This document shows, one piece after another, positions 14,695-22,903 of a stretch of 44,285 bases of DNA (position 1 is its first letter; every line of letters starts with the position of its first letter). A program made the position numbers and the translations under genes. The stretch is from an uncultured bacterium (lineage in GTDB: Bacteria > Verrucomicrobiota > Kiritimatiellia > UBA8416 > CAMZLY01). The notes beneath the pieces are model-generated. The model saw only the letters and a program-made list of their open reading frames with translations. It had not been told where the DNA came from and made no database searches. The stretch is taken from positions 1-44,285 of the forward strand of contig CAMZLY010000083.1 of assembly GCA_947311825.1 (NCBI GenBank), read 5' to 3'.

Positions 14695-17600
14695 ATGTCA
14701 GATAAAAATATGATTATGATTGACGGTAATACAGCCGCCGCTCAGGTAGCTCATGCACTCAGCGAAGTGTGTGCAATTTATCCAATCACGCCATCTTCTG
14801 CGATGGGTGAAACTGCAGACGAACTCAGTGCTGCCGGTGTAAAGAATATCTGGGGAACCATCCCTGATGTAGTCGAAATGCAATCCGAAGGTGGTGCTGC
14901 CGGTGCAGTTCACGGTGCACTTACCGCAGGCTCTATGACAACAACATTTACAGCATCCCAGGGATTGCTACTAATGATTCCTAACATGTACAAAATTGCC
15001 GGCGAACTTACTGCTGCAGTATTCCATGTATCAGCCCGCTCAATTGCATGTCAGGCTCTATCCATTTTCGGCGACCATTCCGACGTAATGTCCGTTCGCT
15101 CGACCGGCTGGGCTTTACTTGCCGCAAGTAGCATTCAAGAAATCGGCGATATGGCTCTTCTTGCCCATGCATCAACATTAGAATCAAGAATCCCGTTCGT
15201 ACATTTCTTTGACGGATTCCGTAACTCACACGAGATTCAAAAAGTTGACCAAGTATCACGCGAAACAATCCGTGCTATGATAGATGACGAAATGGTATTT
15301 GCACATCGCGAACGCGGACTAACACCAGATCACCCATCCATTCGCGGTACCGCACAAAACCCTGACGTATTCTTCCAAGGACGCGAAACAGTCAACAAAT
15401 ACTATGACGCAACAGCTGGTATCGTTCAAAAGAACATGGACAAACTTGCAAAAATGACAGGTCGTCAATACAATCTATTTGATTATGTTGGTGCTCCTGA
15501 TGCAGAAAAAATTATTGTTATCATGGGCTCAGGTGCAGAAACTGTGCATGAAGTTGTTGAATACATGAACACAACTGGTGAAAAAGTCGGATTAGTAAAA
15601 GTACGTCTCTACCGTCCTTTTGACGTAAAAGCTTTTGCCGCATCACTTCCTGCATCAGTTAAATCAATTGCCGTACTTGATCGCACAAAAGAGCCTGGCT
15701 CAATTGGCGAACCGCTTTATATTGATGTACGCTCCGCTCTCGGCGAAGCCATGGAAAACAAATGGTATACTGGCGGATGGCCAAGAGTTCTTGGCGGACG
15801 TTATGGCCTAGGTTCAAAAGAATTCACACCGGCAATGGTTAAAGCTATATTTGACAACCTTTCAGCCGAAACTCCTAAAAACCACTTCACCATCGGTATC
15901 AACGACGACGTAACCAACACAAGTCTTGAAGTAGATACGTCTTGGCACATTGCCGATTCCGACAGTTTTGAATGTATGTTCTATGGTTTAGGATCTGATG
16001 GTACTGTTGGTGCCAACAAAAACTCAATCAAGATCATTGGTACAGATACAGACAACTATGCACAGGGGTACTTCGTATATGACTCGAAAAAAGCCGGTGC
16101 AATGACAGTGTCACATCTACGTTTCGGCAAAAAACTCATTCGTAGTCCATACCTATGTACACATGCCGATTTCGTTGCATGCCATAACTTCTCCTTCTTG
16201 GAAAAATATGACATGCTGGCAAACGCCAAAGATGAATCAGTATTCCTACTCGCCAGCCCCTATTCCGCAGAAGAAGTTTGGGATCACATGCCGGACAAAA
16301 TCGAACAGCAAATTATTGATAAAAAAATCAAATTCTACGTAATCGATGCAATCAAAATTGCACATGATCTCGGACTTGGTGCACGTATCAATACTATCAT
16401 GCAGGCATGCTTCTTTGAAATATCCGGTATTTTACCTAGCGAACAAGCTGTAGCTTCCTTAAAGAATGCTATCAAGAAATCGTACGGCAAAAAAGGTGAT
16501 GCAGTTGTTCAAATGAACTACAGTGCCGTTGATGGTGCAGTAGCAGGTCTGGCAAAGGTAGAAGTTCCTGCCGCAGTTGCTGGCAAAGTTAAAATGCCAT
16601 TAACCGTATCTGCTGATGCTCCTGACTTTGTTCAAGATGTAACAGCAGTACTAATGCGTCAAGAAGGAGACTCGCTACCAGTAAGCAAGATGCCTGCTGA
16701 TGGAACATGGCCAACCTCAACTACACAATACGAAAAACGTAATATCGCAGTTGATGTACCAGCTTGGGACAACAGCCTATGTATCCAATGTGGACGCTGT
16801 TCATTAGTTTGCCCACATGCCGCAATACGTATCAAAGCTTATGATCCAAAAGCACTTGATAACGCTCCTGAAAGCTTCAAATCACTTGACGCTAAGGGCA
16901 AAGATTATGCTGGCATGAAATACACTGTTCAGGTTGCTCCTGAAGATTGTACCGGTTGCGGAATTTGCGTTGAAATGTGCCCTGGTCGCGAACGTGACGA
17001 AAATAAACAGGAAACAGGTCGTCGTGCAATCAACATGGAACCACAACTTCCAATCCGTGAGCAAGAAGAAACAAACTTTGAATTCTTCCTCACTGTACCT
17101 GAAGTAGATTCAGACCTTTACAATGTTGCAACAATAAAAGGAAGCCAGATGGCACAGCCATTATTTGAGTTCTCCGGTGCTTGTGCAGGTTGTGGGGAAA
17201 CACCATACATCAAGTTGCTAACACAGCTCGTTGGTGACCGGGCGTTAATTGCAAATGCAACAGGTTGTTCATCAATCTACGGTGGTAACCTACCAACCAC
17301 ACCATACTGTACACGTCCAGATGGACGTGGTCCTGCATGGTCCAACTCACTCTTCGAAGATAACGCAGAGTTTGGTCTTGGTATGTGTCTGACAGTAGAT
17401 AAGTTCACCGCTTATGCACGTGAACTTGCCGAAACAATCAAAACAGAGGAATGCTGTAGTGAAGTTTCAAATGACCTTCTAACAGCCGTACTTGACGCTG
17501 ATCAATCAACAAAGAACCTAATCGAAGCACAGCGAAAACGTGTTGCAGAGCTAAAAACTCAACTCGAAAAATGCGATTGTGCAAGCTGTAAAAACCTATT

Positions 17601-18267
17601 CACACTTGCCGATTACCTCGTCAAGAAATCCATCTGGATTGTTGGTGGTGACGGCTGGGCTTATGACATCGGTTACGGTGGTTTAGATCATACCTTGGCA
17701 TCAGGACGTAACATCAACGTACTCGTACTTGATACCGAAGTATATTCCAACACCGGTGGACAAGCCTCAAAAGCAACTCCAATGGGTGCCGTAGCTAAGT
17801 TTGCTGCCTCCGGCAAACCTTCAATGAAGAAGGAACTCGGACTAATGGCAATGACTTATGGTGATGTATACGTAGCCACAGTTGCAATGGGAGCAAATGC
17901 AAATCAAGTAGTAAAGGCATTCATCGAAGCAGAAGCTTACGACGGACCTTCACTGATCATTGCATACTCACACTGTATTGCACATGGTATCGATATGAAA
18001 AAGGGATACGCAGAACAGGATGATGCCGTAAAATCCGGTCATTATCCACTATACCGTTACAACCCTGACCTAACAGCTCAAGGCAAAAACCCATTCATAT
18101 TGGACAGCAAAAAGCCAACCATGAAATTCAGTGAACATGCTCTAAAAGAAAACCGGTTCCGTGTACTAACAACCACCAAACCGGAAAACTCAAAAGAGCT
18201 ACTAGCCACAGCCGATAGAATTGTCGAAGAACGCTTCGCCAAACTAGAAAAAATGGCTGAACAATAA
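14695..18267 (+). CDS. nifJ: Pyruvate:ferredoxin/flavodoxin oxidoreductase (NifJ type)
   Basis: YPITPS, MQSEGGAAG, two CxxCxxCxxxCP ferredoxin motifs, GACAGCGE, GGDGWAYDIG TPP motif; 1190 aa. Confidence 0.97.
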   Translation: MSDKNMIMIDGNTAAAQVAHALSEVCAIYPITPSSAMGETADELSAAGVKNIWGTIPDVVEMQSEGGAAGAVHGALTAGSMTTTFTASQGLLLMIPNMYKIAGELTAAVFHVSARSIACQALSIFGDHSDVMSVRSTGWALLAASSIQEIGDMALLAHASTLESRIPFVHFFDGFRNSHEIQKVDQVSRETIRAMIDDEMVFAHRERGLTPDHPSIRGTAQNPDVFFQGRETVNKYYDATAGIVQKNMDKLAKMTGRQYNLFDYVGAPDAEKIIVIMGSGAETVHEVVEYMNTTGEKVGLVKVRLYRPFDVKAFAASLPASVKSIAVLDRTKEPGSIGEPLYIDVRSALGEAMENKWYTGGWPRVLGGRYGLGSKEFTPAMVKAIFDNLSAETPKNHFTIGINDDVTNTSLEVDTSWHIADSDSFECMFYGLGSDGTVGANKNSIKIIGTDTDNYAQGYFVYDSKKAGAMTVSHLRFGKKLIRSPYLCTHADFVACHNFSFLEKYDMLANAKDESVFLLASPYSAEEVWDHMPDKIEQQIIDKKIKFYVIDAIKIAHDLGLGARINTIMQACFFEISGILPSEQAVASLKNAIKKSYGKKGDAVVQMNYSAVDGAVAGLAKVEVPAAVAGKVKMPLTVSADAPDFVQDVTAVLMRQEGDSLPVSKMPADGTWPTSTTQYEKRNIAVDVPAWDNSLCIQCGRCSLVCPHAAIRIKAYDPKALDNAPESFKSLDAKGKDYAGMKYTVQVAPEDCTGCGICVEMCPGRERDENKQETGRRAINMEPQLPIREQEETNFEFFLTVPEVDSDLYNVATIKGSQMAQPLFEFSGACAGCGETPYIKLLTQLVGDRALIANATGCSSIYGGNLPTTPYCTRPDGRGPAWSNSLFEDNAEFGLGMCLTVDKFTAYARELAETIKTEECCSEVSNDLLTAVLDADQSTKNLIEAQRKRVAELKTQLEKCDCASCKNLFTLADYLVKKSIWIVGGDGWAYDIGYGGLDHTLASGRNINVLVLDTEVYSNTGGQASKATPMGAVAKFAASGKPSMKKELGLMAMTYGDVYVATVAMGANANQVVKAFIEAEAYDGPSLIIAYSHCIAHGIDMKKGYAEQDDAVKSGHYPLYRYNPDLTAQGKNPFILDSKKPTMKFSEHALKENRFRVLTTTKPENSKELLATADRIVEERFAKLEKMAEQ

Positions 18268-18279
18268 AAAACACAAACC

Positions 18280-18313
18280 AAAGCCGGACTGAGCAATCAG
18301 TCCGGCTTTTTTT
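18280..18313 (+). terminator. Rho-independent terminator after PFOR
   Basis: AAAGCCGGACTGA-GCAA-TCAGTCCGGCTTT stem with GNRA loop ending in a T-tract. Confidence 0.9.
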
Positions 18314-18396: not shown

Positions 18397-19038
18397 CTAA
18401 GCCCTGCAAAGACGGGTTATAAAATCACTTTGTCTAAGAACAACAAATGCAATTATCCCGGTAAGTACACCACCAGCATGACAAATCGTTAGTGGCGTTC
18501 CCACATCACCAAGGTGTAAAAAAGCAAACATAACTTTACCTGTTAATACCTCTATAATACTTTTTATGACTACTACCCACAGTCCAATTATTCCTATACG
18601 CTGTAATTTAATATCAGCCGATGATGTAGCAATCTCTAATGCACTCACCGCCATCAGACCATGTGCTATACCGGATAATCCACAAAGGCCTCCGTCAAAT
18701 ATTTCCGGTGATAACATCGAAATCCCAAGGCTACCTATCGCACAAAAAACCACATACAAAACTCGCTTTAACCAAGACGGCTCTAATATTCCGTGATACA
18801 AAAGCATAAACGCACCTACATCAAGCAATAAATGATACCAGGAAACATGGATGAAAGGATAAGTTATAACCCGCCACCATTCCCCCGCACCAACCTCTGC
18901 CGGGGAAAAAATATAATTATAAAACTGATGACCAAAGAGCATCGGAATATTAATTATACAAATCACCGCCAGGAACAACCAAAGTTCTAAGCGATGAATT
19001 ATTTTATCAGTAAAAAAGTTTTTTGCTATCGTTTTCAT
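18397..19038 (-). CDS. rrtA: Rhombosortase-like rhomboid intramembrane serine protease
   Basis: GEWWRVIT, HVSWYHLLLD, catalytic GLSGIAHG and ICHAGG. Start uncertain: ATG 19038 preferred, ORF open to 19110. Directly downstream of a protein with a GlyGly-CTERM-like tail. Confidence 0.8.
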   Translation of the reverse strand: MKTIAKNFFTDKIIHRLELWLFLAVICIINIPMLFGHQFYNYIFSPAEVGAGEWWRVITYPFIHVSWYHLLLDVGAFMLLYHGILEPSWLKRVLYVVFCAIGSLGISMLSPEIFDGGLCGLSGIAHGLMAVSALEIATSSADIKLQRIGIIGLWVVVIKSIIEVLTGKVMFAFLHLGDVGTPLTICHAGGVLTGIIAFVVLRQSDFITRLCRA

Positions 19039-19121
19039 TTTTGTATCCAGTGAGATTTTTGTGACAGAATCATCTTTTTTTTGAGTATGCGGGCGATCTC
19101 TCGCCCACACACTCGGATAAT

Positions 19122-21215
19122 CTATCCACGTATTTGTTTCTTCTTTCTGTTCATCCAGGCAACTGCACCAAGAAAGATCAACCCCACCGGGCCTGTTCCG
19201 GGCGATAAATTTCTTCTACGTCTATGTGATGATTTATGCGGCTGACTAGTCTGCTGTGTCTGCCGAACTTGTTGTTGCTGTGTTGCCGGAACATTATTAG
19301 CAACCTGCTGCACGCTTTCTACGTCACGGGCTTCCTGTGGTCCAATATCAGATGATGCCATACGACGTGCTTCATCAAGGCTGTCACGTAACTGTTTCTG
19401 CGCATTACGATCACGTTTTATTCTTCTCTGATTGAGTCTTTTTATTTTCCAGCGTTTATATTCGTTGTCATTTTCCAGCACTAGAAATGATGTATATTCA
19501 GTTACTATCGAATACATCTCGCCCAATGATACTACCTGAGCAGTAACAGAATCTCTACTACCGTTTCTATCAGCCATTTTTAATAAGCTATCTATTCGTT
19601 TCCATGCCCACATACGCTCAACCTCCGGATTATCATCGTTCGTTGCCGGAAAGTTGAATGTTTGATTCATAGTTAAGGCAACCCCTTGAATATCTGCATT
19701 CAGTTTAACTTTTGTTTTCCCGTTGCCTTTATAGCGACCATAAACTCTAATTGGTGCACCGTAATATAAGTTAGGCAATATCTTAGGTTCGACATCATAG
19801 ACCTTGATTCCTTCGAATCTAACATCAAGATCAGTTGCTGCCGGATGTATAAGCTTACGTCTGAACGCATCTGCCATTCTTGCAAAATTGCTTCCTCTTG
19901 AAATAAACTCGGCAATCCCGCCGGAGTCCTTTGCCATCTGCTGAAGTAATGGGCGGTTAACATTATTACCAACACCAATACAGAATACACGTGCATTACG
20001 AGGTCTGGCTTTTATTCTATTGAGCAATATTTTTCTTTCACGTTGTTCAGTCATACCATCACTAAGAATCACTACGTTCAAAGTGCGGTCTGGGTCTGCA
20101 TATTTATATGCAACCGACATTGCCGGATCAAGAACTGTTCCGCCTCTAGCTTTTTGCGATGACATAAAATCAACTGCCGCCACAATGTTTTCTGCTGTAG
20201 CATTTTGAAGCGATCCAAAATGTGCATTTGGTTTTATGTTAAATGTCATAACATCAAAACGATCATCTCTGCTTAACGACTTAATAAAGCTCGCAACAGA
20301 ATTTTTTGACATTGCCAATTTACGGTCATTGCCCATGCTACCGGATATATCAATCAGAAAAACATAGTCCATGCCGGTATCTAGCTTGCCGAGATCTTCA
20401 CCAGCTGTAACTGTCATGCAAAAGTATCCATCTTCACCGGATTCTTTCGATGTAATCAAATCCATCCCGCTTTTCGGACGCATCATTTCACAAGCAAGCA
20501 CAACATCACGATTCAACTCGCCGCCGGTAGTTTCCAAGCTAGCTTGATAGTATGAGTCTGAATGCCCAACAATAATAAAGTCATCAGCATGGCTTGAACT
20601 TTCAACCTGCTTGATGGGAACCTCAGATTTAATTTCAAATGTGATTGCAAATTTTCCGTGTGTTTGCGAATCAACATTAGCTTTAGCTGTTGTTGCCAAT
20701 GGATAGACGTAATTTATCCAATCGTGATCAAAATCCATTTCCTGATAATATGTAATTTCAACCTTCTGTTCAGCACCGGCAGCAATCGGGAATATACGCA
20801 TCTCAAACGTTTTATAATCCATCTGCTCCAGCAAACCAGGATCACGTTTCTTTACCTTATAACTATTATATATCTCGCGTGCCCGTTTCTTCTCCAAGAC
20901 TTCACCTATCATTTCCTTGCCATTTATCCACATGCTGAAATTGGCAACTGATGCTCCTTTTGGCACAGGAAACGTATATAACGCTTCCACTTGCCTCTTC
21001 TCGGTATTCTTAAATACCTGAGTAACCTTCGTGACAGCAATTCCGTTATTGATGGTGACTTTTACATCATGCTCAACAATCTCAAGCACGCCGCCCAAAC
21101 CTCCATCTGCGATAAGAAGCCCTGCCGCATTACTACTGCAAGCTCCAAATTCTGTAGCCGTTATAACCAATGCTACTACCAACGCCTTCCATCCTACTAC
21201 TTTCCTCTTCATCAT
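19122..21215 (-). CDS. Secreted VIT + vWA domain protein with C-terminal sorting signal
   Basis: Signal peptide, VIT (VTQVFKN...EALYTFPVP...DPGLLEQ), MIDAS DISGS...ILSDG, VTEYTSFLVLE, Q-rich linker, tail PGTGPVGLIFLGAVAWMNRKKK; AGGAGG RBS. Confidence 0.9.
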   Translation of the reverse strand: MMKRKVVGWKALVVALVITATEFGACSSNAAGLLIADGGLGGVLEIVEHDVKVTINNGIAVTKVTQVFKNTEKRQVEALYTFPVPKGASVANFSMWINGKEMIGEVLEKKRAREIYNSYKVKKRDPGLLEQMDYKTFEMRIFPIAAGAEQKVEITYYQEMDFDHDWINYVYPLATTAKANVDSQTHGKFAITFEIKSEVPIKQVESSSHADDFIIVGHSDSYYQASLETTGGELNRDVVLACEMMRPKSGMDLITSKESGEDGYFCMTVTAGEDLGKLDTGMDYVFLIDISGSMGNDRKLAMSKNSVASFIKSLSRDDRFDVMTFNIKPNAHFGSLQNATAENIVAAVDFMSSQKARGGTVLDPAMSVAYKYADPDRTLNVVILSDGMTEQRERKILLNRIKARPRNARVFCIGVGNNVNRPLLQQMAKDSGGIAEFISRGSNFARMADAFRRKLIHPAATDLDVRFEGIKVYDVEPKILPNLYYGAPIRVYGRYKGNGKTKVKLNADIQGVALTMNQTFNFPATNDDNPEVERMWAWKRIDSLLKMADRNGSRDSVTAQVVSLGEMYSIVTEYTSFLVLENDNEYKRWKIKRLNQRRIKRDRNAQKQLRDSLDEARRMASSDIGPQEARDVESVQQVANNVPATQQQQVRQTQQTSQPHKSSHRRRRNLSPGTGPVGLIFLGAVAWMNRKKKQIRG

Positions 21216-21279
21216 CCTACCCTCCTAATGTGAGCCTGCACGCCATTCGTGCAGTTTAACTCACACGCCTACCTCTATC

Positions 21280-21295
21280 GCAAAGAGCGTGCCAA
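21280..21295 (-). promoter_or_regulatory. Sigma54 (-24/-12) promoter of the VIT-vWA/rhombosortase operon
   Basis: Minus strand TTGGCACGCTCTTTGC = TGGCAC-N5-TTGC, 65 bp upstream of the start codon and next to a GAFTGA activator gene. Confidence 0.88.
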
Positions 21296-21322
21296 CCCTA
21301 CGGCAAAATATAAGTACCTTTA

Positions 21323-21335
21323 TATCAACATGTTA
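21323..21335. promoter_or_regulatory. IHF binding site candidate
   Basis: TATCAACATGTTA matches WATCAANNNNTTR and lies between the sigma54 promoter and the candidate UAS. Confidence 0.7.
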
Positions 21336-21374
21336 GACATTTGGCATATAATTTATTAAAACATCTATAGACTT

Positions 21375-21399
21375 ACAATGTATATTGATGCTACATTGT
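21375..21399. promoter_or_regulatory. Candidate upstream activator sequence (inverted repeat)
   Basis: ACAATGTA-N9-TACATTGT perfect 8-bp inverted repeat ~80-105 bp upstream of the -24 box, immediately before the activator ATG. Confidence 0.6.
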
Positions 21400-21403
21400 T
21401 TGT

Positions 21404-22903
21404 ATGAGAAATAAAAAAATATTATCGGACAATGACCGCCACTTCTTTGAACTTGTGACCGAGTCGACATTTGCTAATCCCTTCAGCAATGAGCGAGAAG
21501 AGTTAAATCAAAAAATTCTGAAACTATCGCCAACCATAGACAAAAAAGAGGCAATTGAGCAGATTATGGCGGCATTATCTTTACGATTAAACAAATTACG
21601 TAAGAATAATGCGGATAATATCAACAGTTACAGCCATGCAGACAGCAAACTGCTCAAATTTGCCATTCTATTTGACCTATTTCATCAATATTGTCAGCAA
21701 TTCGATGATCACATTCTCGCACAAGCATCAGAGCCAGCTGTCAATCTGCCATTATCATTTGCAAATGAAATGATGCAAGCAATGACAAAACATGGAATAT
21801 CTGAAAGAGAAGCACTGCACTATTTTGCACTTTCCTATCAGGTACGCCGTGCGTTCTTCTTTATAAATGGTAGCCTGCTCGGTACATCAGAATCTATGCG
21901 TCACTTACGCAAGCAACTCTGGAACAATATTTTTACCTGTGACGTGCACCGCTACATGGAATCCATGTGGAATCGTATGGAAGATTTCTCAACACTGTTA
22001 CTTGGCGGTACAGGAACCGGCAAAGGAACAGCGGCAGCCGCTATTGGACGATCGGGTTATATTCCATTTGATAAAAAAAACAACTTCTTTACAGAATCAT
22101 TTACGACATCTTTTGTATCGCTTAACCTGTCCCAGTTTCCTGAATCACTGATTGAATCAGAAATATTCGGTCATCGAAAAGGAGCATTTACCGGTGCCAT
22201 AGATAATCATAAAGGAATTTTCTCACGCTGCAGTGAACATGGTGCCATTTTTCTTGATGAAATAGGAGACGTTACCATTCCTGTTCAGATTAAATTGCTT
22301 CAAGTATTGCAAGAACGAACCTTCTCCCCTGTCGGTAGTCATAGCACAGAAAACTTTAAAGGCCGCGTCATAGCGGCAACTAACAGACCACTTGACAATT
22401 TGCGTACTAAAGGAGTTTTTCGAGATGATTTCTATTATAGACTTTGCTCAGACGAGATTACCGTTCCATCATTACATCAGCGGATTATGGAAGATGAAAA
22501 TGAATTAAAAATACTTCTCAGTCATATTCTAAAAAAATTACTCGGCGACAATGCAGAGAACTTTCTATCGCAAACCTTGAGCACAATCATAAAAGACGTG
22601 GGCAAAGACTACAAATGGCCCGGCAACGTTCGAGAGTTAGAACAGGCAACTCGCCGGATACTTCTAAACGGTCATTATCGAGGTGATACCGCAGAAAAAC
22701 CCGATAACACAAAAAACAACCTACTTACCAATATAGACGATGGGGCACTTAATGCCGACGAACTTATAACCGAATACTGCAAAATGCTATATAAGCGACA
22801 TCCAACTTACGGAGAAGTTGCACGCCACACCGGACTAGACTGGCGTACAGTTAAAAAATATATAGCCGCAAAAGAACGCAAGGAGCCCAAACATTTCTAT
22901 TAA
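21404..22903 (+). CDS. Sigma54-dependent enhancer-binding protein with unrecognised N-terminal domain
   Basis: Walker A GGTGTGKG, ESEIFGHRKGAFTGA, FLDEIG, FRDDFYYRL, WPGNVREL, HTH YGEVARHTGLDWRTVKKY; no REC/GAF/PAS recognised in the first ~190 aa. Confidence 0.92.
   Translation: MRNKKILSDNDRHFFELVTESTFANPFSNEREELNQKILKLSPTIDKKEAIEQIMAALSLRLNKLRKNNADNINSYSHADSKLLKFAILFDLFHQYCQQFDDHILAQASEPAVNLPLSFANEMMQAMTKHGISEREALHYFALSYQVRRAFFFINGSLLGTSESMRHLRKQLWNNIFTCDVHRYMESMWNRMEDFSTLLLGGTGTGKGTAAAAIGRSGYIPFDKKNNFFTESFTTSFVSLNLSQFPESLIESEIFGHRKGAFTGAIDNHKGIFSRCSEHGAIFLDEIGDVTIPVQIKLLQVLQERTFSPVGSHSTENFKGRVIAATNRPLDNLRTKGVFRDDFYYRLCSDEITVPSLHQRIMEDENELKILLSHILKKLLGDNAENFLSQTLSTIIKDVGKDYKWPGNVRELEQATRRILLNGHYRGDTAEKPDNTKNNLLTNIDDGALNADELITEYCKMLYKRHPTYGEVARHTGLDWRTVKKYIAAKERKEPKHFY

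Follow-up and report, generated by a model that had tools for sequence, protein, structure and literature searches.

Our analysis of positions 18397-22903 of contig CAMZLY010000083.1 from an uncultured kiritimatiellial bacterium (the whole stretch of 44,285 nucleotides is called the window here) finds a three-gene cassette that is likely to be a dedicated rhombosortase system, in which one protease serves one substrate under sigma-54 control. Three open reading frames (ORFs) fill this region. Genes for a rhombosortase-type rhomboid protease and for a secreted protein with VIT and von Willebrand factor type A (vWA) domains lie on the minus strand, and the gene for a sigma-54 enhancer-binding protein (the activator) is divergent from them on the plus strand, with a spacer of 188 bp between it and the VIT-vWA gene (table 1). 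The parts and their order are conserved in other genomes, as are a promoter and an enhancer in the spacer, and the type of tail on the VIT-vWA protein matches the clade of the protease encoded beside it. The original prediction, made from the letters of this DNA, had described the same three-gene anatomy with its control elements, and all the elements it listed are present where it placed them or within a few bases. The host genome (G000; genomes, contigs and loci carry the letters G, C and L below) is a 2.5-Mb assembly in 214 contigs, 88% complete, of which the window is contig C83, and a genome profile search finds that it encodes rpoN (TIGR02395, 435.8 bits against a cut-off of 277.35).

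Many of 41 genomes of the same order, G000 included, have full-length relatives of the VIT-vWA protein, and in eight of them (G000, G001, G004, G017, G024, G030, G032 and G039) a rhomboid homologue lies directly downstream of the VIT-vWA gene. Among the VIT-vWA proteins with such an adjoining rhomboid, identity to that of the window runs from 84% to 33%. All eight loci carry TGGCA[CT]-N5-xTGC upstream of the VIT-vWA gene, and six have the divergent upstream activator; G030 and G017, which do not, encode the orthologous activator N-terminal domain (N-domain) elsewhere (246 and 230 bits, respectively). In these two large genomes of one family the operon (L025, L026) keeps its sigma-54 promoter and the activator is on another contig (L125, L126), where it faces a divergent -24/-12 element about 680 nt upstream in a stretch that is partly masked. 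The remaining VIT-vWA paralogues in this order have no membrane tail and finish in another, soluble C-terminal domain; one of them, L021, has the second of the two tail types described below.

In a wider pattern scan, which took one genome for each prokaryotic species, at least 583 relatives were confirmed among at least 599 candidates, and the best 80 of these at least 583, with VIT-vWA proteins 54–83% identical to that of the window, were surveyed. By their record titles the 80 loci span at least eight phyla, with Verrucomicrobiota, Planctomycetota, Kiritimatiellota, Lentisphaerota, Thermodesulfobacteriota, Nitrospirota, Acidobacteriota, Chlamydiota, Hydrogenedentota and Binatota among the names; the labels Klebsiella, Bifidobacterium and Akkermansia on some of the metagenome-assembled genomes are probably wrong. 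Proteases were sought with an HMM (hidden Markov model) derived from the downstream ORFs, at the 71 loci that have at least 800 nt of downstream sequence, and 70 of the 71 have a rhombosortase-like ORF there on the same strand. These comprise 64 within the adjacency range, five over-extended ORFs that overlap the end of the VIT-vWA gene, and that of L109, where an ankyrin-repeat gene lies between; at L099 the HMM search found no such ORF. The activator is divergent from the operon at 34 of 41 loci of one tail class (GPVG, defined below) and 13 of 25 of the other (GGAxDP) that have enough upstream sequence, and L066 has an activator downstream. At L135 (G177:C38, 2354-4609, minus strand) the VIT-vWA gene is split into two adjoining ORFs by a frameshift or an assembly error, and the tail and rhombosortase are intact.

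The promoter element TGGCAC-N5-TTGC lies upstream of the VIT-vWA gene, in sense, with its GG and GC doublets 10 bp apart as in a sigma-54 promoter. It is the single match in the window, and since 13 of 100 shuffled sequences also give at least one match, this alone is weak evidence and the comparative data carry the case. Within 300 nt upstream of the VIT-vWA gene, NGGCA[CT]-N5-NTGN is present in sense at 54 of the 80 surveyed loci versus five in antisense, against a background of 0.055 per 330 nt. A slightly wider rule for the -12 element gives 46 sense and one antisense among the 50 GPVG loci, which bears out the sigma-54 promoter originally claimed, and 11 sense and two antisense among 26 GGAxDP loci. 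The operon might instead be read from an ordinary sigma-70 promoter, the sigma-54 match being fortuitous; the chance expectation of that match and a second sigma-70-like site, on the minus strand at 21336-21307, would fit this idea, but the recurrence of the element at the same place in all eight orthologues of the order, together with the excess of sense over antisense matches, makes it extremely unlikely. A strict promoter scan that demands the -12 GC misses about half of the surveyed loci. Over L033-L072, the -12 element of these cassette promoters is unusually relaxed for a sigma-54 promoter family.

In 42 regions (41 loci that have both promoter and activator, plus the window), the stretch of 200 nt upstream of the promoter was analyzed for enhancer motifs. 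The most enriched 7-mer, AATGTAT, is present in 17 of the 42 (background 1.2%, not A+T-matched). AATGT[AC] occurs 45 times versus 13.9 in shuffles that approximately keep the dinucleotide content (maximum 26 in 200 shuffles); 15 regions have at least two copies (shuffle mean 2.1, maximum 7) and 16 have none. Its positions are fixed, at -116 and -94 on the sense strand and at -124 and -102 on the other, and the arrangement found in the window, AATGTA-N9-TACATT, recurs in L036, L054 and L086. From this enrichment, the fixed positions and the recurring arrangement we conclude that the inverted repeat of the window, whose conservation had been named as a point to check, is a real, conserved enhancer element. 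In the whole 2.5-Mb assembly the core AATGTA-N7-11-TACATT occurs once, in the window spacer, and among the 27 TGGCAY-N5-TTGC sites of G000 only that of the window has the enhancer repeat upstream. Since the repeat stands between a sigma-70-like -10 hexamer and the activator ATG, autoregulation is possible, and the activator may repress its own synthesis.

The VIT-vWA gene has an AGGAGG resembling a ribosome-binding site (RBS) 8 nt upstream of its ATG. The metal ion-dependent adhesion site (MIDAS) of its vWA domain is intact, as had been predicted: D289, S291, S293, T360 and D386 are invariant in an alignment of eight orthologues. At the extreme C-terminus a G-T-G-P-V-G motif is followed by a hydrophobic helix and then a basic cluster, and with its signal peptide and this tripartite tail (Gly-rich, helix, basic) the protein has the GlyGly-CTERM architecture. 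Tail residues G673, G675, P676, G678, F681, W687 and R690 are invariant in the eight orthologues, and the tail is presumed to be the recognition and cleavage region of the rhombosortase; it has no LPXTG motif. The best whole-protein match is TIGR03788, at 251.6 bits and below the cut-off of 551.65.

The protease passes the rhombosortase model TIGR03902 with 87.6 bits as a protein and 89.1 bits in a six-frame genome search (cut-off 84), and scores 39 bits with Pfam Rhomboid. Its predicted catalytic dyad is Ser146 in GLSG (residues 144-147) and His211 in CHAGG (residues 210-214). Both residues, along with H88, H93, G144, G147, K183 and G214, are 100% conserved in 53 sequences (the window protease and 52 downstream ORFs of related loci), so that the identification of this rhomboid as a rhombosortase with catalytic Ser and His holds. 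A cognate tripartite tail is encoded by the adjoining VIT-vWA gene. The start of the protease is more likely ATG 19038 than GTG 19110, since most orthologue alignments begin near residue 40 of the longer form.

The cassette looks closed in G000, because there is one protease, one target and one enhancer. One rhombosortase is above cut-off in this genome, and a further rhomboid reaches 49.4 bits in the six-frame search. When every ORF of 120 amino acids or more was scanned in six frames, the G-x-G-P-V-G type of tail turned up on the VIT-vWA protein only. One other ORF, on contig C41, has a loosely similar tail; it encodes the multi-pass transporter FeoB and was rejected as a target.

Tails and proteases each occur in two kinds. 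The GPVG tail class (G-[ST]-G-P-V-G-P) has 50 of the 80 loci, plus the window, and the GGAxDP class (G-G-[AG]-x-[DE]-P) has 25, plus L106 by eye; four genes run off their contigs. With the window protease as query, tblastn matched the downstream gene in 42 of 45 GPVG loci and, weakly, in 3 of 25 GGAxDP loci, and the GGAxDP-class proteases that it missed were recovered by the HMM. In a maximum-likelihood tree (quick search) of 71 proteases there are two deep clades, each with a support of 100 in the SH-like approximate likelihood-ratio test (SH-aLRT) and with stem lengths of about 1.6. One has 44 members, all GPVG; in the other, 24 GGAxDP members are joined by L106 and by the pair L078/L083 with its GGGPVGP[LF]G tails. 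Two changes of tail label suffice on this tree, versus about 20 in shuffles, and by these sequences tails and proteases form two apparently matched module subtypes. Four GGAxDP-class proteases score 90–120 bits with TIGR03902, and one GGAxDP tail reaches the GlyGly-CTERM-form MprA tail model (21.1 versus 19.7 bits). The GGAxDP tails (L055-L110; for example L076, L087 and L104) have a conserved Asp-Pro after the glycine run. The heavy chains of mammalian inter-alpha-trypsin inhibitor, which are eukaryotic VIT-vWA proteins, are cut at Asp-Pro and their new C-terminal Asp is esterified to a glycan, a possible parallel between C-terminal cleavage and attachment.

The activator belongs to the AAA+ proteins (Sigma54_activat, PF00158, 143.8 bits against a cut-off of 20.2), and no NCBIfam activator model reaches its cut-off on it. 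G000 has nine strong matches to Sigma54_activat, of which the window activator is the lowest (146 bits; the other eight have 221–251). Pfam gives no helix-turn-helix (HTH) family on it at E ≤ 0.01, though the segment EVAR.TGLDWRTVKK is conserved among orthologues, and has no match in residues 1-190. The N-domain (first 195 residues) aligns over 42 orthologues with N25, F27, Q146, R149, A150 and G160 invariant and an N-P-F-[ST]-x-E-R motif. AlphaFold2, run on that alignment, gives a nine-helix all-alpha domain with a predicted local distance difference test score (pLDDT) of 90.4 and a predicted template modelling score (pTM) of 0.86. Foldseek found no match to this model in the PDB at E ≤ 0.001 (TM-scores about 0.2), the best hit of VIA-align wide has a Z of 6.1 over 62 residues, the level of unrelated helical hairpins, and protein atlas matches are to unnamed clusters only. 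By this model the N-domain is a candidate new sensor domain.

Several findings weigh against reading the cassette as a dedicated system. At the promoter, TTGG, TTGA or ATGA often takes the place of TTGC at -12, while the -24 TGGCA[CT] is kept. The correspondence of tail class and protease clade is no proof of co-evolution between enzyme and substrate, since both are inherited together in one operon. The window protease exceeds the TIGR03902 cut-off by just 3.6 bits, and in a sample of the phylum four of the seven GPVG-type proteases, window included, fall under it (the other six have 94, 86.3, 83.6, 81.8, 77 and 63.4 bits). The tail fared worse than originally expected with the GlyGly-CTERM model TIGR03501: nothing in G000 reaches its cut-off of 15.5 bits, the VIT-vWA tail is unmatched at E ≤ 1, and none of four GPVG tails is matched at E ≤ 10; nor did GPVG tails match any NCBIfam C-terminal sorting model. 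Because the tail is below every such model, canonical GlyGly-CTERM-like processing of it is an extrapolation. For the same reason the main rival stays regulated shedding, in which the tail would be a plain membrane anchor and the rhomboid would free the VIT-vWA ectodomain to the periplasm or medium, with no lipid re-attachment or display. The position of the protease in its own deep clade, straddling the cut-off, would agree with shedding, as would the P-V-G-P motif, which is made of helix-breaking residues; Urban and Freeman are said to have reported in 2003 that general rhomboids need such residues in their substrates. We nevertheless consider shedding unlikely, since the tail keeps the tripartite plan common to all known sorting signals, the protease fits the rhombosortase model better than that of GlpG (87.6 versus 21.4 bits), and canonical models match tails and proteases of the sister GGAxDP class.

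The remaining points of this kind concern the activator. Seven of the 41 GPVG loci have none nearby. A profile of the N-domain was searched against 151 evenly sampled genomes of the phylum, with about 7–8 kb taken on each side of a match (less at contig ends), and it matches 31 genomes, G000 included, once each. VIT-vWA and protease genes are adjacent at ten of the 30 other loci, and the other 20 have no VIT-vWA or rhombosortase gene within about 7 kb. Among the 13 genomes of the same class with an orthologous activator, five have the trio and eight have the activator beside other genes; seven of those eight (94–97% complete) have no VIT-vWA orthologue at E ≤ 1e-40, and the eighth has only a tail-less VIT-vWA paralogue. 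G138 has the VIT-vWA/rhombosortase pair and its promoter, and is unmatched by the N-domain profile. The self-contained trio first proposed therefore stands in part: it recurs across phyla, but the association is frequent and not obligatory, and although G000 has one candidate target and one enhancer repeat, related activators elsewhere adjoin other genes.

At loci that lack the pair, a -24/-12 element often stands opposite the activator, 45–170 nt away. The divergent genes there encode an MFS-acyltransferase-AMP-binding fusion (two genomes of one genus), an alpha/beta hydrolase, DUF2157 membrane proteins, a B12/radical-SAM enzyme, small membrane proteins and an OmpA-like barrel. The family of this activator thus extends beyond the cassette, and most of the genes it partners are of envelope or lipid type. 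The fusion has an architecture of the lysophospholipid re-acylation type. As sister activators adjoin genes of lysophospholipid-repair type and outer-membrane genes, their neighbours hint at a lipid or envelope signal, which we offer as a lead and not as a result. The window activator could by the same token regulate envelope or lipid genes in general and have several targets, the VIT-vWA operon being one adjacent member of its regulon. The divergent elements just described and the activators unlinked from the operon in G030 and G017 would accord with that, but the N-domain occurs once in G000, the enhancer repeat is found at one of 27 promoter-like sites in 2.5 Mb, and the activator adjoins the operon at most GPVG loci, all of which render a general role very unlikely.

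For the dedicated system that we favour, we infer the following course of events. The activator would be made from its own divergent promoter and would attach to the AATGT[AC] repeats, which lie some 100 bp upstream of the TGGCAC-N5-TTGC promoter. A signal would relieve the all-alpha N-domain, the AAA+ ring with its GAFTGA loop would open the sigma-54 closed complex, and the two-gene VIT-vWA-rhombosortase operon would then be transcribed. The signal peptide would export the VIT-vWA protein and its C-terminal helix would retain it in the inner membrane, where the co-transcribed rhombosortase (Ser146/His211) would cut inside or beside G-[ST]-G-P-V-G-P. By analogy with VesB of Vibrio cholerae, the new C-terminus would be joined to a lipid-like moiety, and the metal-dependent vWA adhesion domain would then be handed to the cell surface, probably via a type II secretion system encoded in the genome; two GspD secretins are above cut-off in G000.

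The other features of the region are given in table 1. The integration host factor (IHF) consensus had been counted among the functional parts, but its pattern WATCAANNNNTTR has five matches in the window versus 4.27 expected, which is the chance level. Sigma-70-like sites found by a consensus scan of the region are in total no more numerous than in shuffles. The hairpin in the 5' untranslated region (UTR) of the operon has a counterpart in the congener G001, CTATACG-AATGG-CGTATAG, with two compensatory pairs. Of 55 UTRs, 6 have a similar hairpin whose loop contains ATGG, versus a mean of 0.76 and a maximum of 4 in shuffles; with so few, such hairpins were rejected as a general feature of the cassette. 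Beyond the 3' end of the operon, the hairpin at 18280-18309 is probably a terminator shared by the two convergent genes; its T-run is confined to the plus strand, and the neighbouring gene, similar to pyruvate:ferredoxin oxidoreductase (nifJ-like), occupies 14695-18267.

Table 1. Features of the cassette region (window coordinates) and, in the last five rows, genes elsewhere that same-N-domain activators face (coordinates within the named locus)
Feature	Position	Strand	Remarks
Rhombosortase gene, variant clade, 237 amino acids	18397..19110	-	Longest ORF, GTG start 19110
Catalytic His211	18478-18480	-	Predicted
Catalytic Ser146	18673-18675	-	Predicted
VIT-vWA gene, secreted protein, 697 amino acids	19122..21215	-	
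C-terminal sorting tail SPGTGPVGLIFLGAVAWMNRKKKQIRG	19122-19205	-	Includes stop codon; 19125..19205 without
vWA domain	19866-20363	-	Pfam VWA families 60-66 bits, VWA_3 66.1
MIDAS DISGS	20337-20351	-	In vWA domain
VIT domain	20748-21077	-	Pfam VIT 114.6 bits
N-terminal signal sequence	~21123-21215	-	VIT-vWA protein
5'-UTR hairpin CTGCACG-AATGG-CGTGCAG	21236..21254	-	Between promoter and RBS
Sigma-54 -24/-12 promoter TGGCACGCTCTTTGC (TGGCAC-N5-TTGC)	21280..21294	-	Faces VIT-vWA-rhombosortase operon
IHF-consensus match TATCAACATGTTA	21323..21335	+	Overlaps sigma-70-like -35 hexamer
Sigma-70-like promoter TCAACA-16-TATAAT, 10/12 consensus	21325..21352	+	Candidate activator-gene promoter
Enhancer (upstream activating sequence, UAS), inverted repeat ACAATGTA-N9-TACATTGT	21375..21399		81-119 bp upstream of -24 element, just before activator ATG
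Sigma-54 enhancer-binding protein gene, 499 amino acids	21404..22903	+	Divergent
All-alpha N-terminal domain	21404-21988	+	Unmatched fold
Walker A GGTGTGKG	22004-22027	+	AAA+ core
GAFTGA	22181-22198	+	Residues 260-265
Walker B IFLDE	22247-22261	+	
C-terminal HTH-like segment	22808-22864	+	
Terminator-like hairpin, 13 pairs	18280..18309		Bidirectional; between convergent nifJ-like and rhombosortase genes
Gene faced by activator, L131	8575-11910		
Gene faced by activator, L132	4107-7472		
Gene faced by activator, L134	8456-9196		
Gene faced by activator, L129	5556-6869		
Gene faced by activator, L127	2317-3024		

To our knowledge, there are very few bacterial rhomboid proteases whose native substrates and regulation have been worked out. 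The cassette is a compact natural system in which both could be studied, with one protease, one invariant tail motif, one metal-dependent adhesion cargo, and a promoter, activator and enhancer, and its conservation extends from Verrucomicrobiota and Planctomycetota to Desulfobacterota and Nitrospirota. Annotation under-reports it, in that the GlyGly-CTERM model does not pick up the GPVG tail and many proteases score just short of the rhombosortase cut-off. Judged from the sequences, what appears to be new is the sigma-54 layer, the GPVG tail with its own protease clade, and the unmatched sensor domain; current understanding is not overturned, since the protease-target half was already predicted in 2011. 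We would suggest, quite tentatively and at less than even odds, that the GPVG tail and its rhombosortase clade are a distinct sorting system, with its own recognition rule and perhaps its own anchor, switched by a one-component sigma-54 activator whose N-domain senses a membrane-lipid or envelope signal. If this is true, it would be a natural inducible system with one bacterial rhomboid and one native substrate, spread across many phyla.

In the literature, judged mostly from search matches and in part from accessible text, we found no report that connects sigma-54 or an enhancer-binding protein with rhombosortase or GlyGly-CTERM; a literature search found no joint treatment of sigma-54 with von Willebrand and rhomboid, and among the matches listed none combines GlyGly-CTERM with VIT/VWA. 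Willebrand, rhomboid, PEP-CTERM and sortase all go unmentioned in Francke 2011 (PMC3162934). For a VIT-vWA protein of 708 amino acids in Limnobacter thiooxidans (LT3126), the accessible part of a 2026 preprint reports strong induction by gamma rays and a protective effect on overexpression (10.64898/2026.05.23.727404).

Rhombosortase and GlyGly-CTERM were defined by Haft & Varghese 2011 (PMC3237569). The accessible text of that paper places rhombosortase and target adjacent in 16 of 21 single-target genomes (its Table 3 includes Opitutus terrae PB90-1 and Rhodopirellula baltica SH1, both of the PVC group), and the legend of its Figure 3C describes VIT/vWA homologues with GlyGly-CTERM, PEP-CTERM or LPXTG tails; the term "sigma-54" is absent from the same text. 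The unit had been put forward as undescribed, and for the sigma-54 layer and the N-domain we found nothing in the literature to the contrary, but for its other half, that 2011 paper already has both dedicated rhombosortases adjacent to their targets and VIT-vWA homologues with GlyGly-CTERM tails. As in the pairs of Haft & Varghese, a TIGR03902-type rhomboid in the window adjoins the genome's only protein with a matching tripartite tail. Unlike them, the window has a tail, G-[ST]-G-P-V-G-P, that is below TIGR03501, a protease in a separate deep clade, and a sigma-54 activator, enhancer and promoter as part of the cassette; the supplements of the paper may name VIT-vWA targets among the genomes of its Table 3.

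The rhombosortase of Vibrio cholerae cuts VesB, which according to the accessible text of Gadwal et al. 2018 is joined to a glycerophosphoethanolamine-containing moiety and reaches the surface via type II secretion (PMC6219818). This pair is our working model for the window protease, and G000 likewise has GspD secretins. In Vibrio, by the same text, one protease serves several unlinked substrates (proteases and nucleases), whereas the window has a predicted one-to-one operon with an adhesion-type vWA cargo.

The proteobacterial dedicated sortase system (TIGR03788/TIGR03784) resembles the cassette in its VIT-vWA cargo and in having one sorting enzyme with one adjacent target, by the accessible text of PMC3237569. 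The window differs from it in having a rhomboid and not a sortase, no LPXTG, and a one-component sigma-54 activator. The proteobacterial sortase/LPXTG VIT-vWA cassette carries its own two-component regulators. A precedent for VIT cargo of a dedicated exosortase is the VIT protein of the XrtN system (TIGR04477), on whose model the window protein scores 72.2 bits versus 250, and one for sigma-54 control of C-terminal sorting is PEP-CTERM/exosortase with PrsR (TIGR02915), where the window activator scores 148.1 bits versus 502.6. Unlike the PEP-CTERM/PrsR system, the window cassette has an activator with no receiver domain and no partner kinase gene beside the trio, and it pairs a rhombosortase with a GPVG tail in place of exosortase and PEP motif.

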